Shown here: positions 47,109-53,300 of the stretch, piece after piece
Layout: the number at the start of each line of letters is the position of its first letter
How positions within the stretch are numbered: the first letter of the stretch is position 1
Source of the DNA: Alphaproteobacteria bacterium
Lineage (GTDB): Bacteria > Pseudomonadota > Alphaproteobacteria > SHVV01
NCBI GenBank assembly: GCA_965261735.1
Contig: OZ253470.1
Coordinates: 3,264,001 to 3,328,000 of the forward strand
Length of the DNA stretch: 64,000 nucleotides
Reading direction: 5' to 3'
Position numbers and translations under genes: made by a program
Notes under the pieces: model-generated
The model's database searches: none
Told to the model about the DNA's origin: nothing
Seen by the model: only the letters and a program-made list of their open reading frames with translations

Positions 47109-47227
47109 AGGTCGCACGAACGTAAAGAGAGGCACGACGCGGGCGCCGTACCGTCCTCGCGCGACATGTTAATCTTCTTCGCCGACAATCGCCCGCGCAC
47201 GCCGACGCCGAGAAGGAGATGCGGCGC

Positions 47228-47660
47228 ATGGCCGATGACGGCCGGGACGAATCCGCGGGCGTGGCCGAAACGGTCTTCTTCGCGAAAACGTTCGACGACA
47301 CGCTCGCCCTTGTCACGGACGCCCGCGACTACTTGGCGACGCAGGCCGCGGCGGAGATGCGCCCCCTCCCCGGCACCACGGCGCTCGCCTATACCCACGA
47401 AGCGCTGCGACTCACCTGCCGGCTGAGCCACGCGATGGCCTGGCTGCTGGTTCAGCGCGCGGTGCTTGCCGGCGAAATCACGCGGGCGGACGCGGGGCGA
47501 GAGGAATTTCGCCCGGCCGACCTCACGAGCGTGCTGTGCGAGCCGCCGCTGCTCGCGGCCGGCATGCCGCCAGCGCTGAGCGCGCTGCTCGAACGGGGGC
47601 CGCGCCTTGTCGCTCCGCATCGCCCGGCTCGACGAGCTAGCGATGCGCGACCAAGCGTGA
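47228..47660 (+). CDS. rcdA: DUF1465/RcdA-like protein with a +1 frameshift in a G run near 47597
   Basis: ARDYL, EALRLTCRL...AWLLVQRAV..GE; shifted frame gives RALSLRIARLD. Confidence 0.75.
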
Positions 47661-47776
47661 GTCGCGGCCGCCCGCCTCCCCGAACCATTTCCACGCCTGC
47701 GCTCAGCCGGAGGTTGCGAACGGGGATGCATCGTGGATGAAGGCCGTCGTAGGATGGCTTTGTGAAGCATGGGGTG

Positions 47777-48556
47777 ATGCAATCGGCAAAGTTACTCGCC
47801 GCCGCAATGACAGCGGCGCTGGCGGCCTCGCACGCGGCGGCCGAGGAACCGAATTACCCAGTTTGGTGATCGCCGGTGCTCGAGCTTGAAAGCATCGACG
47901 ATATCGATGCCCGTCTGTCGAAGCGCTTTGTGGACAGCGGCAAAGGCGCGCCCGTTCACAAGGGCAAAGGGGCCGACCGTAAGACCGAATACGTGGACAG
48001 TTGCGCCTCTCTCGCCCGGTGGTCAGAGCACGGCTACAGCGCCCTCGCGAATGTGTACCTGAAGTTTTTGCACTATCAAGAGGCCACTTGCCGCATCATT
48101 GAACTGCTGCGGAGCGCGAAGCCCGCGCGCACGAGCTTTGTGCGGGAGTTCGCGCTCGACGGCGACGCCCTCGACTACCTGCCGGACATGGTCAATCTCT
48201 CACCCTCGTGCGAGGGGGCAGGCTGGCAATTCCAGGCCAACGAAAAGAGCATCCCGCTTACGCAACACTCTGAGATCAGCGAGCTGCAAGTGGTGGGCTC
48301 TAACCGGATCGAGTTCGACACGGATGGAGACTTCACGAGTGTAGAAGCGATGGCGCGGGCCGATTTCAATGGCGACGGGCTTGATGATCTGGTGGTGCGA
48401 GTATCGGTGGAGCTTGCGCACGGAACATGGGGGGCGACCACCGATTTAGTGCTGTCGCGCGCCTCGCCTCGCGCCGTCCTCAGAGTCCTCGATGCCGCCA
48501 AGGAACTCTGCCCCGGTTACGACTATCCCTTCGACCACCCCGACCCTGGCGGATAG
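47777..48556 (+). pseudogene. Secreted paralog 1 (putative immunity protein) with a nonsense codon at 47867
   Basis: Signal peptide MQSAKLLAAA...; YPVW*SPVLELES where the paralogs read YPVWWS; DFNGDGLDD. Confidence 0.85.
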
Positions 48557-48561
48557 GCCCG

Positions 48562-48658
48562 CTAGACGTACCACTGTTTGAGGGCGTCTCGCTTGCCGGT
48601 GGGGTGGACGAAATGGGGCTCCCTTCTTGGCCGCCTCCTCGAATCACTTCCGCACTTG
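48562..48658 (-). pseudogene. Remnant of the muramidase 3' end (about 31 codons, with a stop and a frameshift)
   Basis: QVRK*FEEAAKK/EPHFVHPTGKRDALKQWYV; near-identical to 51629-51724. Confidence 0.88.
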
Positions 48659-48735
48659 AGCTCAGCCAGTGGTTGCGAGTGAGGATGTATCGTGGATGAG
48701 GACTGCCGTAGGATGTCTTCATGAGGCGTGGGGCG

Positions 48736-49482
48736 ATGCAATCGGCAAAGCCAGCTATGGCCGCGGTGATCGCGGCGCTGGCGGGCTTGCCCGCGTCGCG
48801 GCCGGTGGCCGCAAACGAACTTTACCCCGTGTGGTGGTCGCCGGTGCTGGAGCTTGAAAGCCTCCACGACATCGACGAGAGGCTTGCGCGGAAGTTCAAG
48901 TACCCCTTCACCGCCTACAAGGGCAGGGGCGCGGAGCGCAAGAGCGCCCACGTCGACAACTGCAACTCCCTCAAGCACTGGTGGGCCCAAGGCTATGCCG
49001 ACGCGGTGAGCTCGGACCGGTTGATTTCGCTCTATGATTTGGTTGGCTGCCGCATCATCGAACTGCTGCGCCGGGCGAAGCCCGCGCGCACGAGCTTTGT
49101 CCGAACGTTCATGCTCGACACCGAAGCGGTCAACTACCTTCCGGCGATGGTCGATTTGGAGCCGTTTACCAGTCGAGTAAAATGGCAATGCGAGGCTAAT
49201 GAAAAGGGCATCCCGCTGGCCCGCGCCTCCAACGTGAGCAAACTAAAGGTCATCGGCCCAAATGAGATGAAGTTCGAGTCGCCAGGAATGAGCGTCGGTG
49301 TTGAGCTGATGGCGCGCGGCGACTTCAATGGCGACGGGCTCGATGACCTGGTAGTGCGGGTGAGGGGGCGCGCGACGGGGGGAACTTGGGGGGCGACGCG
49401 GCACTTCCTATTGTCGCGCGCGACTTCGCAAGCCGTATTGCGAATCCTGAATACCGCCGAGATAAGGGCTTGCCGAACCTAG
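48736..49482 (+). CDS. Secreted paralog 2 (putative immunity protein), C-terminus probably truncated
   Basis: Signal peptide; YPVWWSPVLELES, CRIIELLR, YLPAMVDL, DFNGDGLDD, GTWGAT. Confidence 0.85.
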   Translation: MQSAKPAMAAVIAALAGLPASRPVAANELYPVWWSPVLELESLHDIDERLARKFKYPFTAYKGRGAERKSAHVDNCNSLKHWWAQGYADAVSSDRLISLYDLVGCRIIELLRRAKPARTSFVRTFMLDTEAVNYLPAMVDLEPFTSRVKWQCEANEKGIPLARASNVSKLKVIGPNEMKFESPGMSVGVELMARGDFNGDGLDDLVVRVRGRATGGTWGATRHFLLSRATSQAVLRILNTAEIRACRT

Positions 49483-50632
49483 TGGATTGATTCCAACGTT
49501 TGGAACCCTCTGTTTCGTGCGGCGATGATATGATCGGGGTCGGCTTTCCAGATGAAGGGTTTTGGGTTTGCGTCATTGTATTCGCGGACAAATCGGTTGA
49601 TGGCGTCCTGAAGGTCGACGACGGATTGGAAGACGCCGTATTTGAGCCTGCGCCGCGTTAGTTTGGCGAAGAAGCCCTCGACGGCATTGAGCCACGAGCA
49701 CGAGGTTGGCGTGAAGTGGAAGGTCCAGCGTGGATGGCGGGCGAGCCAGGCGCGGACCTTGTCCTTCTTGTGCGCGGCGTAGTTGTCGAGGATGACGTGG
49801 ACGGCCTTGTCCGTCGGCACCTCGCGCTCGATGCGGTTGAGGAAGCGGATGAACTCCTGATGGCGGTGGCGCTGCATGTTCTGTGCGATGACCGTACCGT
49901 CCAGCACGTTGAGCGCGGCGAACAGCGTCGTCGTGCCATGCCGTTTGTAATCATAGGTCATCGTACCGGCGCGGCCCTTCTTCATCGGCAAGCCGGGTTG
50001 GGTGCGGTCGAGCGCCTGGATCTGTGATTTCTCATCAACCGACAGCACCACGGCATGGGCCGGCGGATCGACATACAAGCCGACGATATCTGTGAGCTTC
50101 TCGGCGAAGGCGGGATCATTGGAGAGCTTGAAGTGCCGCCAGCGGTGCGGGCTGAGGCCATGGGCCTTCCAGATCGCTTGGACCGTCGACGCCGCGACGC
50201 CAGCAACCTTCGCCATCGCGCGCAGCGTCCAGTGGGTCGCCTCGTGCGGCGGCGCTTGCTGGGTCAGGCGGACGATCTCGGCGACGCGCTCCGGCGGGAT
50301 CGGCGCTTTGCCAGGCGGACGGGACCTGTCGCGAAGCAAGCCGTTGACACCCTCGTGCATGAACCGCTCCTGCCAGCGCCAGACACAGGTCTTGGACTTG
50401 CCGGTCTCGGCCATGATCGACGAGTTCCCGAGCCCCTCGTCGCTCTTCAGGATGATCCGCGCCCGCCAGACATGTTTCTGCGAGCTCTTCGGGTCCGCGA
50501 CGATAGCTTGCAATCGCTGACGGTCGCCAGACGTGACAGTAAAATGGATGCCGGTGCGCATAGCACAGACTCGCATGACACCGCACAATACGGAATCTCA
50601 AATCGGACTCTTTCGTTCCGATCAATCCACTA
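49480..50632 (-). mobile_element. IS630-family element; transposase 49479-50561
   Basis: TAGTGGATTGAT/ATCAATCCACTA ends within CTAG; SVDEKS, ILDNYAAH, SWLNAVE. Confidence 0.93.
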
Positions 50633-50673
50633 GGACTGCCCCGCCGGCCAGGCCGCCATACGGGGCTCTTGAA

Positions 50674-50769
50674 CTAGACATACCACTGCTTGAGGGCGTC
50701 TCTTTTGCCGCTGGGGTGAACGAAATGGGGCTCCCTCTTAGCCGCCTCCTCGAACCAGTGGCGTACCTG
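50674..50769 (-). pseudogene. Remnant of the muramidase 3' end (31 codons)
   Basis: QVRHWFEEAAKREPHFVHPSGKRDALKQWYV*. Confidence 0.88.
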
Positions 50770-50845
50770 GTCTCAGCCAGGGGTTGCGGACACCGGCAGG
50801 CGGGAGATAATTAGCCTCGAGGATCACCGGTAGAGGACTCCGGTA

Positions 50846-51622
50846 ATGCGAGCAGCAACGGCCGGGGCGGCAGCGTTAGCCGCGATGCTCGTGGCAGCGC
50901 CGGCGCTGGCGACCGAGCGCTACCCCGTGTGGTGGTCGCAGGCGCTGGAGCTTCAAAGCCTTGACGACATCGATACCCGTCTGTCGAGGCCCTTTGTGAC
51001 CAGGGGTAAGGGCGCCCCCGTCTACAAGGGTAAGGGGGCGGACCGCAAAACCGAGTATGTAAACAGTTGCGCCTCTCTCTTCCGGTGGTCAGAGCAAGGC
51101 TACAGCGCCTTCGCGAACGTTTATCTGAAGGCCTTGAATTATCAGAAGGCCACATGCCGCATCATCGAGTTGCTGCGCGACGCCAAGCCGGCGCGCATGA
51201 GCCATGTGCGCACGTTCACGCTCGACGCCGAAGCGATCAACTACCTGCCGGCGATGGTCGATCTGCATCCGCTGTGTGGCGCGGTGGGCCCGCAATATTT
51301 GGCTAACGACAAAGGCATCCCGTTGGCTCAGTTTTCAAAGGTCGGCAAGGTCGAGGTTATCGGACCCCACGAGATGCGGCTCGACTCGGTCGGATCGCGC
51401 GTCCGAGTCGCGACGATGGCACGCGGCGACTTCAACGGCGACGGGCTCGATGATCTGGTCGTTCGGGTTTCTGCCCACGTGACGGACGGCACTTGGGGGG
51501 CGACCACTTATCTAACGTTGTCACGTGCCTCGCCCGGCGTCGTCCTCCGGGTTCTCGATGCTGCCAAGGAATTGTGCCGGGATTACGACTACCCCTTCGA
51601 CCACCCAGAACCTGGCGGATAG
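50846..51622 (+). CDS. Secreted paralog 3 (intact; putative cognate immunity protein)
   Basis: Signal peptide ending ALA; four Cys at positions matching paralog 1; DFNGDGLDD; ends 6 nt from the muramidase stop. Confidence 0.88.
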   Translation: MRAATAGAAALAAMLVAAPALATERYPVWWSQALELQSLDDIDTRLSRPFVTRGKGAPVYKGKGADRKTEYVNSCASLFRWSEQGYSAFANVYLKALNYQKATCRIIELLRDAKPARMSHVRTFTLDAEAINYLPAMVDLHPLCGAVGPQYLANDKGIPLAQFSKVGKVEVIGPHEMRLDSVGSRVRVATMARGDFNGDGLDDLVVRVSAHVTDGTWGATTYLTLSRASPGVVLRVLDAAKELCRDYDYPFDHPEPGG

Positions 51623-51628
51623 GTCGGG

Positions 51629-52522
51629 TTAGACGTACCACTGTTTGAGGGCGTCTCGCTTGCCGGTGGGGTGCACGAAATAGGGCTCCTTCTTGGCCGC
51701 CTCCTCGAACCACTGCCGCACCTGCGTGTTACGCTCTTCGGGCGCCTGCCTGCGTCCAGATTCCTTAGCCGCCCTTTTCCAGTCCCGCATGGCAACGGCT
51801 TTTCTGAATTCCGGGAATCCATACTCTTCAGCCGACATGAAGATTTTTTCGACGCCCGCATTGTAGGCGATGTCCAGGAGGCCGAGCTTGGCCGTGGGCG
51901 GGAAGGTGTCGAAGCCCGAGAACTCGGTCTTCTGCTTGAGCGCCCCTATCGTTTGCCAGATGTCGAGCACCGCGAGGTCGCCGACGTCGTTCTTCGACAT
52001 CCTGATTTCGGTCAGGGGTTCGAACACGGTGAAAATCCTGTCTTTTAGATCCTGTCTCTTCTTGACCGCTTCATAGGCCTGTCTGATGGCCTCTGCCGTC
52101 GCCGGCTCCTCGTAGTCAATCCCCGGCCGCGCCCAATAGAAACGCAGTTGCTGCGCCGCCTGCGCGCTCTCGATCAGGTGGCCGAGGCCCACGGTCACGT
52201 TGCCCTCGCTATCGAGATACATATACTGGACGCGTCCTTCGGACCTTTCCAGCTGATCGAAATATTCCTTCTCGATGTCCTTCCACGGGAAGGGCGGCCG
52301 CAGCCCAGTGTTGAAAATCTGCTTGAGCTTGGCGTCGCGAACGACGTAGCCCGTACCGCGCTCGACCAGGATGTGTTTGTGCCACTTCCAGTGGTAGGCC
52401 CAGGCGGCAAGCTTCTTCAGGCGCTCGGCGATGTAGTCCGGCTTGACCTTGAACTTGGTGAAACCGGCGTGGCGCGCGTCTTTCTTCTCGATGTTCCGGG
52501 CCTCGATCATGAAGCTCATCAC
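51629..52522 (-). CDS. T4-lysozyme/GH24-like muramidase with an ~85-aa N-terminal extension and no signal peptide
   Basis: SEGRVQYMYLDSEGNVTVGLGHLI gives the E-x8-D-x5-T triad; LLDIAYNAG; FRKAVAMRDWKRAAKES. Confidence 0.85.
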   Translation of the reverse strand: MMSFMIEARNIEKKDARHAGFTKFKVKPDYIAERLKKLAAWAYHWKWHKHILVERGTGYVVRDAKLKQIFNTGLRPPFPWKDIEKEYFDQLERSEGRVQYMYLDSEGNVTVGLGHLIESAQAAQQLRFYWARPGIDYEEPATAEAIRQAYEAVKKRQDLKDRIFTVFEPLTEIRMSKNDVGDLAVLDIWQTIGALKQKTEFSGFDTFPPTAKLGLLDIAYNAGVEKIFMSAEEYGFPEFRKAVAMRDWKRAAKESGRRQAPEERNTQVRQWFEEAAKKEPYFVHPTGKRDALKQWYV

Positions 52523-52536
52523 CGCTCTCCCGCGTT

Positions 52537-52581
52537 TGATGCGTTACGCATCATTATACGATACGTTAGGAGACGTGTGAA
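52537..52581 (-). promoter_or_regulatory. Sigma70 promoter with adjacent palindrome
   Basis: TTCACA-17-TATAAT (52581-52553); palindrome TGATGCGT-T-ACGCATCA at 52537-52553. Confidence 0.7.
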
Positions 52582-52689
52582 TTCATAACGAATTGGGGAA
52601 TACGGGCGCGGGAGGGCGCGTCGATGAGCGCGATTGTTGGCGGGCGGGCGTCGATTCAGCCGAGCTTATGCGGAGGGACGCGGCGAGGC

Positions 52690-52910
52690 CCACCCTTCGA
52701 CAGGCTCAGGGTGAGGCGGAGTCTGGTGCCGGCCTCACCCTTCGACAGGCCCAGGGTGAGGAGCCGCACCAACCCTCATGCTGAGCTTGTCGAAGCAGGA
52801 GCGCCAGCAGGCCCACCCGTTGACAGGCTCGGCCAATCGTGGGGTGTGGCGCGCGGCGTCGCCACCTGTGCGAGGATTAAGGTAGGGGCGGGTTTGAAAC
52901 CTGCCGTTGC
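52690..52910. repeat. Cluster of REP-like elements
   Basis: CACCCTTCGACAGGCYCAGGGTGAGG x2, inverted CCTCATGCTGAGCTTGTCGAAG, a degenerate fourth copy, and GTAGGGGCGGGTTTGAAACCTGCC. Confidence 0.75.
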
Positions 52911-52943
52911 GGGCCGGCTCGGGGCCGGCGGCCGAATGGACGC

Positions 52944-53168
52944 CTATTTGAGGCCGAAGCCCTCGAAGCGCTTCTGGAACTTGGCCACCTGGCCGCCGGT
53001 GTCGACGAGGCGCAGGCCGCCGCCGGTCCAGGCCGGGTGCGACTTGGGGTCGATGTCGAGCTTGAGCACGTCGCCCGCCGCGCCCCAGGTCGAGCGGGTC
53101 GTGAAGGTGGTGCCGTCGGTAAGCACCACCGTGATTTCGTGGTAGTCCGGGTGGGTGTCTTTCTTCAT
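52944..53168 (-). CDS. rpmE: 50S ribosomal protein L31 (no zinc-binding Cys)
   Basis: [24 protein letters not shown]. Confidence 0.95.
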
Positions 53169-53300
53169 CGGGCGAGCCTCTTGTGGACGGCGCACGGTTT
53201 ATAGGCGACGCCGCGCGCGCTGGCAAGCGCCGCCGACTTGTTGGCGGCACCCAGGATTGCTAGGCTCGCGCTCCTTGGACTGCGGCAGCGGGATCGCCAT

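Follow-up and report, generated by a model that had tools for sequence, protein, structure and literature searches.

A divergent GH24-type muramidase and a candidate family of periplasmic immunity proteins in an alphaproteobacterial genomic island

The window analysed here, that is, the whole stretch of 64,000 nucleotides at positions 3,264,001 to 3,328,000 of contig OZ253470.1 of an environmental alphaproteobacterium (assembly GCA_965261735.1), contains between a DUF1465 gene and rpmE an island in which the gene of a 297-aa muramidase converges on three related partner genes, P1, P2 and P3. This locus is probably a self-contained toxin–immunity module that works as follows. The muramidase, a GH24-type enzyme, would cut peptidoglycan once it is in a periplasm, and P3, exported by the Sec system, would bind across the catalytic cleft, block the enzyme and protect the producer and its kin. 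P2 would be an intact orphan immunity protein of other specificity, close to the partner of a second muramidase allele in the same genome (locus C), and the array would have grown as a unit of one immunity gene and the last ~30 toxin codons was repeatedly duplicated or recombined as a cassette. The module would be mobile, as suggested by the insertion of the island, its lower GC content and the patchy distribution of the partner family.

The muramidase, its partner family and their pairing

First of all, the catalytic motif E95-x8-D104-x5-T110 is present in the 297-aa open reading frame (ORF), as an earlier, sequence-only reading of this DNA had noted; in an alignment of 25 sequences D104 never varies, and conservation is 90% or higher at E95 and T110. 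The AlphaFold2 (AF2) model of the muramidase has a pLDDT of 86.8, and Foldseek, which the same reading had proposed as a check, places it in the T4 lysozyme fold: the search returns 234 matches in the PDB at E<=0.001, and the first 50 of these are nearly all T4 lysozyme or its fusions and chimeras, with E of ~1e-4 for T4 lysozyme and pesticin–T4 lysozyme chimeras and a TM score (target) of ~0.6 for free T4 lysozyme. A sequence search of the PDB gives T4 lysozyme at E 0.05–0.3 over residues 86–121. In a set of 5.8 billion proteins, 32 relatives of the muramidase were found at E<=1e-3; many of them carry PF00959, some carry PF16754 (Pesticin), and several are named GH24 lysozyme in their sources. 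NCBIfam gave no match for the muramidase, P2 or P3. As the sequence-only reading had stated, the N-terminus of the muramidase (MMSFMIEARNIEKKD...) has no hydrophobic signal, judged by reading the sequence.

The three partner proteins share a signal-peptide-like N-terminus, the motif YPVWW, three invariant cysteines and the motif DFNGDGLDD, in agreement with the earlier description of three secreted paralogs of ~250 aa. All three are present and two of them, P2 and P3, are intact; the description does not hold for P1, in which the second Trp of YPVWW has changed from TGG to TGA (YPVW*SP) in a frame that is otherwise open, and which is read as a dead, freshly inactivated copy of the P3 type. In an alignment of 11 partner sequences, C75, C104 and C244 are invariant, an Asp-rich loop is seen, and the N-terminus is lipobox-like in some members. 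From the signal-peptide-like N-terminus, a periplasmic location of the partner would be expected.

In the AF2 model of P3 (pLDDT 80.5) the N-terminal half is helical and a single beta-sheet domain comes after it. No PDB fold matches this model, and the best hit of a PDB sequence search has E 0.48 and covers the FG-GAP motif only. The sole Pfam match in the partner is likewise a single FG-GAP motif on DFNGDGLDD, at 22.1–23.0 bits with a cut-off of 22.1. An FG-GAP/integrin-type beta-propeller was considered and rejected, since there is one motif only and the model is a helical half with one beta-sheet domain. The partner matches no NCBIfam or PHROG family and has no Pfam family of its own. At E<=1e-3 in the 5.8-billion set there are 10 relatives of P3, five of which come from the window or its genome, and the nearest P3 clusters in the protein atlas are unnamed, with the label 'hypothetical protein'. 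The literature search, in which supplements of papers that might list such families were not covered, returned no description of the family. That is to say, the family that the first reading could not recognise remained without a name in Pfam, in the PDB folds and in the literature found.

The pairing of muramidase and partner is more than chance, because it recurs within the host genome and elsewhere. The host genome (G000, a single contig of 5.03 Mb, 98% complete) carries the muramidase family at seven loci (Table 1, where W is the locus in the window) and the partner family at 20–23 places. At six of the seven muramidase loci the opposite strand carries a partner no more than ~2 kb from the 3′ end of the muramidase, and the gap between them is 6–59 nt where no insertion sequence (IS) intervenes (W, B, C, D and G); in W the stop codons of the muramidase and P3 are separated by 6 nt, which bears out the convergence described before. 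The locus C muramidase has 66–67% identity to the W enzyme. At the G locus the muramidase is almost identical to that of D, and the partner has lost the signal peptide and the YPVWW region, so that immunity there may depend on the copy at D. The host genome also holds an orphan array of partner copies with no muramidase nearby, and a short muramidase without partner beside selA/selB (Table 1).

Co-occurrence, the check proposed for this pair, was found in three other genomes as well. In a Rhodospirillales metagenome-assembled genome (MAG; contig L026) a long-form muramidase, that is, one with the N-terminal domain discussed below, is convergent with an ORF of three fused partner domains; a Rhizobium MAG (L027) has one convergent pair; and in G005, a genome of the same family as the host, a long-form muramidase is convergent with a partner array interrupted by IS elements. 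G005 is the only one of 60 other related genomes to have the partner family. The partner search of genome contigs gave at least 13 loci among the matches listed, ten of which matched P3 weakly (E 9e-8 or worse) and were not counted as pairs; among the matches listed, seven of these ten match P3 around the FG-GAP motif only, and L028, L030 and L033 match P3 residues ~35–240 at 21–28% identity. In an alphaproteobacterial MAG (G003, contig L029) two tandem partner-like genes were observed and no muramidase-family match was found in that genome; these genes may be another orphan immunity set.

In metagenomes, 71 loci were collected by means of the muramidase alignment and binned by the E value of the muramidase hidden Markov model (HMM), with at least 700 nt downstream required. 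The partner is present at the 3′ end in 17/17 loci with E<1e-60 and in 5/30 with E>=1e-60 (more distant GH24s), where the bins express closeness and are not an independent classification, the HMM having been built from alignment A1. The long forms L039 and L041 are convergent with their partners, and convergence is kept in all long-form relatives seen. In most short forms (~195 aa, no N-terminal domain) the partner is the next gene on the same strand, at gaps of -58 to +38 nt between intact ORFs; L092 (a short form) and L072 (which ends at the contig end) are convergent exceptions. Apart from IS elements, no third gene is common to the loci, the exception being a tape-measure-like ORF at loci of the D/G type. 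As a side observation, partner domains are fused in single ORFs in L026, L059 and L071 (Table 1).

Moreover, the two proteins are predicted to bind each other. In the complex prediction recommended by the earlier reading, the muramidase (alignment A1) and mature P3 (alignment A2, residues 24–258) reached ipSAE of 0.87, 0.87 and 0.86 in three runs, and the best of three controls 0.07; in the calibration of the score, 58 of 80 solved complexes reach that mark, as do 2 of 110 mismatched pairs, counts which are only rough with custom alignments. At least 87% of the contacts recur between runs, and the partner has a pLDDT of at least 90. On the muramidase the predicted interface comprises residues 93–96 (with E95), 104–106 (with D104), 113–114, 161–169, 218–229 and 253–265, that is, the catalytic cleft. 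PDB sequence and fold searches found no similar solved complex for the partner, and the score is therefore hardly a product of memorised structures. These results are support, not proof, for binding of P3 over the catalytic cleft, and P3 is presumed to be the cognate immunity gene.

P2 has 56–57% identity to P3 and 74% to the broken partner of locus C, and its C-terminus (...NTAEIRACRT) resembles that of the locus C copy (...NTAEIEACRG); judged by sequence, it is likely an orphan immunity gene of another, locus C-type specificity. In line with specificity, positions at the predicted interface diverge faster than the rest, which is suggestive: P3 and P2 are identical at 19/55 interface positions and 108/167 elsewhere, P3 and P1 at 33/55 and 115/167, and the muramidases of W and locus C at 14/29 and 91/123. 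The earlier proposal of an effector with cognate and orphan immunity genes thus gains from the pairing, the predicted complex, the interface divergence and the closeness of P2 to the locus C partner.

The island and the growth of the array

The island appears as ~5 kb of lower GC content between DUF1465 and rpmE, 0.61–0.62 against 0.66–0.71 in the flanks. In G005 these two genes are 158 nt apart and the island is absent; therefore, the island is an insertion into a conserved site. Position 47665, given as the start of the array by the sequence-only reading, turned out to be no gene start: it falls close to the left end of the repeat, whose first position is 47672. P1 and P2 lie upstream of P3 on the same strand.

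Table 1. Features of the locus in the window and of related loci, with coordinates
Feature	Position	Strand	Remarks
DUF1465 gene	47219-47740		left neighbour; Pfam E 5.8e-22
P1, partner-family pseudogene	47774..48556	+	in-frame TGA 47867-47869; 65-68% identity to P3
Remnant 1, muramidase 3′ end	48563..48657	-	...EPHFVHPTGKRDALKQWYV*, one frameshift; 95 nt
P2, 253 aa	48721..49482	+	intact; signal-peptide-like N-terminus
IS630-family element	49479..~50633	-	transposase 49479-50588; between P2 and P3
Remnant 2, muramidase 3′ end	50675..50769	-	...VRHWFEEAAKREPHFVHPSGKRDALKQWYV*; breakpoint identical to remnant 1
P3, 258 aa	50846..51622	+	intact; presumed cognate periplasmic immunity protein
Muramidase, 297 aa	51629..52522	-	GH24/T4-lysozyme fold ~83-280, N-terminal domain 1-82
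Promoter-like site and palindrome	52538..52581	-	TTCACA-17-TATAAT 52581..52553, then 15-nt GATGCGTAACGCATC 52552..52538
rpmE	52944-53195		right neighbour
Locus W	window		muramidase, P2, P3 intact, P1 pseudogene; convergent, 6 nt gap
Locus A	778-782 kb		enzyme broken, two partner copies, IS; convergent
Locus B	977 kb		intact pair; convergent, 59 nt gap
Locus C	1353 kb		both genes broken; convergent
Locus D	1412 kb		intact pair; convergent, 45 nt gap
Locus G	2916 kb (G000:C1:2915731-2917464, L022)		enzyme intact, partner N-terminally truncated; convergent
Locus 4566 kb	4566068-4566595 (L023:8068-8595)		short (175-200 aa) muramidase copy between VTT-domain gene and selA/selB; no partner
Orphan partner array	G000:C1:1696200-1701700 (L021)		three to four partner copies (one intact, 311 aa), IS-interleaved
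IS630 copies	window 49479-50633; G000:C1:774187-775296; G000:C1:1403476-1404585		two at or near muramidase/partner loci
Tape-measure-like ORF, 334 aa	L025:7492-8496 = G000:C1:3943492-3944496	-	H locus; intact only here, muramidase missing
Tape-measure-like ORF, D	G000:C1:1413453-1414470		frameshifted
Tape-measure-like ORF, G	2917652-2918178		truncated
Fused partner domains	L026:5911-8448	+	three domains, 845 aa, one signal peptide
Fused partner domains	L059:891-2342	+	two domains, 483 aa, one lipobox
Fused partner domains	L071:5579-7018	+	two domains, 479 aa, one lipobox
Tandem partner-like genes	L029:5923-7652		two genes, HMM E 2e-14 and 5e-13

The remnants keep the last ~22–32 codons of a muramidase (...WFEEAAK(K/R)EPHFVHP(T/S)GKRDALKQWYV*), and remnant 1 sits 6 nt past the stop codon of P1, the same as in the intact pair. 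In both remnants homology stops at the same point, at the start of the sequence upstream of the following partner gene, and the repeat unit between P1 and P2 is 959 nt long. From this common breakpoint it follows that the repeat unit is one partner gene plus a toxin 3′ end. Such units may have been duplicated on the spot, or they may have come in through recombination at the conserved toxin 3′ end. The IS630 element is inserted at the TA of the P2 stop codon, and the IS end is the stop codon of the transposase, so that P2 stays whole. The genome has three copies of it, with 0 to 3 differing positions, and other IS families, with transposases of 339 aa and 378 aa, recur at muramidase/partner loci. 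In one RNA-library contig 49478 is followed directly by 50630, with no IS between them, which means that an IS-free allele exists elsewhere.

The promoter-like site upstream of the muramidase is the best σ70-type match in 5.5 kb, at 11/12 positions. This site and the palindrome are both kept upstream of the locus C muramidase; this palindrome after the -10 hexamer is present at the W and C loci only, and it therefore defines no regulon. No exact SOS box (GTTC-N7-GTTC or GAAC-N7-GAAC) was found upstream of five muramidase genes, and the PADLOC models of anti-phage defence matched none of the muramidase, P2, P3 and the tape-measure-like ORF (0 families). Further upstream of the muramidase promoter lie repeats of CACCCTTCGACAGGC(T/C)CAGGGTGAGG at 52691–52761 and up to ~52900, with similar ones upstream of the locus C muramidase, and RNA-library contigs accumulate on the repeats at 52691–~52900, probably from many organisms. 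Four metatranscriptome runs gave short contigs only, most of which fall on the IS or on the repeats close to rpmE, and the parts they leave uncovered are uninformative. In addition, DNA near-identical to 47600–53000 of the window (0.73–0.96 of sampled words) occurs in 15 public runs from 8 studies under 8 organism labels; the host bacterium was evidently sampled together with various other organisms.

The locus might also be an old module that is in decay and of which only non-functional remnants are left. Breakage is indeed seen in P1, in both genes of locus C and in the locus A muramidase, and IS elements are common at the loci; against this, the muramidase, P2 and P3 of locus W are intact with a coding-type GC content at third codon positions (GC3, 0.76–0.81), the pairs at B and D are intact, and the promoter-like site comes close to the consensus. 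Decay is thus an improbable account, and a working toxin–immunity module is preferred.

Delivery of the enzyme and competing explanations

The sequence-only reading had drawn an analogy to the Tge/Tgi pairs of type VI secretion systems (T6SS), which holds for the family and fails for this locus. On the side of the family, hcp lies directly upstream of a short-form pair in L059, L066 and L071 (Pfam T6SS_HCP at E 9e-28 in L066 and 2e-16 in L071, and for L059 by 91% identity to the L071 protein); L100 has hcp upstream of the GH24 gene; L092 has tssB-tssC-hcp beside the pair (VipB E 2e-124); and in L055 an Imm11 immunity gene neighbours the pair. Because these short relatives adjoin hcp or tssBC, they are T6SS cargo. 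On the side of the locus, no TssB, TssC, Hcp, VirB4 or phage-type contractile sheath was found in the host genome, with control genomes matched, and none of its muramidase loci is linked to hcp, vgrG or PAAR. A search for TssC was likewise negative in the three MAGs holding L026, L027 and L029, whose completeness is unknown; two of these, G001 and G002, carry convergent pairs, and G003 carries only partner-like genes. Besides, an additional N-terminal domain sets the long form apart, and it stands behind a promoter-like site of its own. It is accordingly highly improbable that the host bacterium delivers the muramidase by contact as a T6SS cargo effector with Tgi-like immunity, even with short relatives of both families directly after hcp or beside tssB-tssC-hcp; the genome being without T6SS genes, delivery here is T6SS-independent.

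The extra domain (residues 1–82) consists in the AF2 model of two helices followed by a beta-hairpin around LVERGTG. With a profile of it (A4), built from 8 loci, 1.84 billion representatives were searched, which gave 79 proteins at E<=1e-3. Of these, 78 were examined: 38 have a lysozyme domain, 17 are short fragments, and 23 are long adhesin-like proteins of 462–4684 aa. Five of the long ones were scanned and proved to be four TQ/SpaA adhesins and one Ig-like repeat protein; the 23 long matches were rejected as non-homologous, as only a beta-hairpin motif of 25–30 residues is shared. The protein atlas gave no usable match for residues 1–85 of the muramidase.

Given this N-terminal domain, an immunity gene lying downstream and opposite as in colicin M, and a genome without T6SS, type IV secretion system or contractile sheath, a bacteriocin-like route, in which the enzyme would be released and then imported from outside, is favoured as a tentative suggestion; an export route not yet recognised would be the alternative. 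On this basis one can imagine, with some reserve, a GH24 effector that is fired through the T6SS in Gammaproteobacteria and has been re-tooled in T6SS-less Alphaproteobacteria by means of the N-terminal domain for a bacteriocin-like or undescribed export, together with an immunity protein of a fold absent from the PDB, built up in cassettes and sometimes in fused arrays.

An origin from phage is another possibility to be weighed, in which the enzyme would be an endolysin or tail lysin and the periplasmic inhibitor would regulate lysis or exclude superinfecting phage. GH24 is the classical phage lysozyme fold, and the muramidase has a weak match to the PHROG endolysin phrog_7 (E 0.0032). Immediately upstream of the muramidases of D and G type, on the same strand, there is also an ORF of 334 aa that carries the C-terminal motif of the lambda tape-measure protein (PF09718, E 4.5e-5; ...PYLVGEAGPELFVP...). 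There is, however, no holin, capsid or other phage gene at any locus, the modules lie between housekeeping genes, the tape-measure-like ORF has 0 matches beside relatives in other genomes, and the short forms, with their T6SS neighbourhoods, speak for a role in antagonism among bacteria. We regard the phage explanation as improbable, to about the same degree as decay.

The enzyme could also be conceived as a housekeeping remodeller of the cell wall that is regulated by a lysozyme inhibitor of the Ivy, MliC or PliG kind; a periplasmic protein predicted to cover the active site of a lysozyme would suit such a role. But the enzyme lacks an export signal, and the family is patchily distributed (one of 60 other relatives) and exists in many diverged copies with pseudogenes and IS elements, inserted into a conserved site, so that this role is very unlikely.

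Several points weigh against the toxin–immunity module with bacteriocin-like delivery. All of its support is computational. The muramidase falls under the cut-off of Pfam Phage_lysozyme (14.9 vs 22.3 bits, residues 93–123 only); relatives at 36–40% identity do carry PF00959, and it is therefore a divergent member of GH24/PF00959 and not a non-member. The N-terminal domain was found on no other toxin domain in the 78 proteins checked, and being confined to the muramidase family it is unlike a shared trafficking module. No TonB-box-like motif was seen by eye, no export or import signal was recognised in the muramidase, and neither a lysis gene nor a receptor is in evidence. The tape-measure-like ORF upstream at D and G hints at a phage-tail connection that this reading does not account for. 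The muramidase and P1 are touched only by short RNA-library contigs (51653–51920 and 47749–47908), which are possibly DNA. Finally, the faster change at the interface may merely reflect surface loops.

Comparison with known systems

A peptidoglycan-degrading toxin with a periplasmic immunity protein is a kind of system already known, and Tge1–3 are separate families. What is new in the first place is an immunity family conserved beside one GH24 subfamily on contigs of Alpha- and Gammaproteobacteria type, a confidently predicted plug of the lysozyme cleft, which makes the partner a target for structure work and for the understanding of lysozyme inhibition. New, too, is the same pair in two delivery contexts, short and T6SS-linked on the one hand and N-terminally extended in genomes without a contractile system on the other, and the extra domain could expose a new route for a folded enzyme between Gram-negative cells. 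Moreover, a 5-Mb genome with seven toxin loci and about twenty immunity copies is a record of how an immunity repertoire is built.

The closest likeness in domain order is to pesticin and its immunity protein Pim of Yersinia. According to PMC3390615, pesticin is a T4 lysozyme-like muramidase behind an N-terminal import module that can kill from outside, and it meets a periplasmic immunity protein; alike are the C-terminal T4 lysozyme-like domain, the N-terminal extension, the absence of a signal peptide and the periplasmic immunity protein, and some muramidase relatives carry PF16754. The differences are that pesticin has a disordered T domain and an R domain in residues 1–167, whereas the N-terminal extension here has ~82–130 residues, is predicted to be folded and shows no TonB box by eye; that pesticin is plasmid-borne and the present genes are chromosomal and multi-copy; and that the immunity protein here has ~230 mature residues and no known relative, the Pim sequence not having been compared.

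In arrangement, the locus is like colicin M and its immunity gene (Cmi), which, according to PMC4661593, lies downstream on the opposite strand, encodes a product facing the periplasm, and is accompanied by common orphan (bmi) immunity genes. The convergent layout, called atypical by the sequence-only reading, is the same as that of the colicin M genes (PMC4661593). A bacteriocin is linked to an immunity gene whose product acts at the site of the toxin; such a gene is present here, its product would be located in the periplasm, and binding to the enzyme is predicted.

With the T6SS pairs, namely Tge/Tgi and TssI2–TsiI2, the locus would share a lysozyme-type toxin acting in the prey periplasm and a Sec-exported immunity protein that binds the groove; in PMC9620997, TssI2 is a VgrG with a pesticin domain, and TsiI2 is Sec-exported and binds the catalytic groove. 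TsiI2 has 127 residues (PMC9620997), in contrast to ~250 for the partner here, which matches no PDB fold. Unlike these pairs, the present one has no T6SS in its genome, is convergent and not in an operon, and has the extra N-terminal domain. Since the defining feature, a T6SS in the genome, failed, it is not a T6SS pair in the host genome.

Orphan immunity arrays are known from contact-dependent inhibition (CDI) and Rhs polymorphic toxin loci. The present array is like them in its tandem immunity genes beside one toxin, its toxin 3′ remnants and its IS elements; it is unlike them in that the toxin remnants lie on the opposite strand, because the pair is convergent, and in that immunity domains are fused in other genomes.

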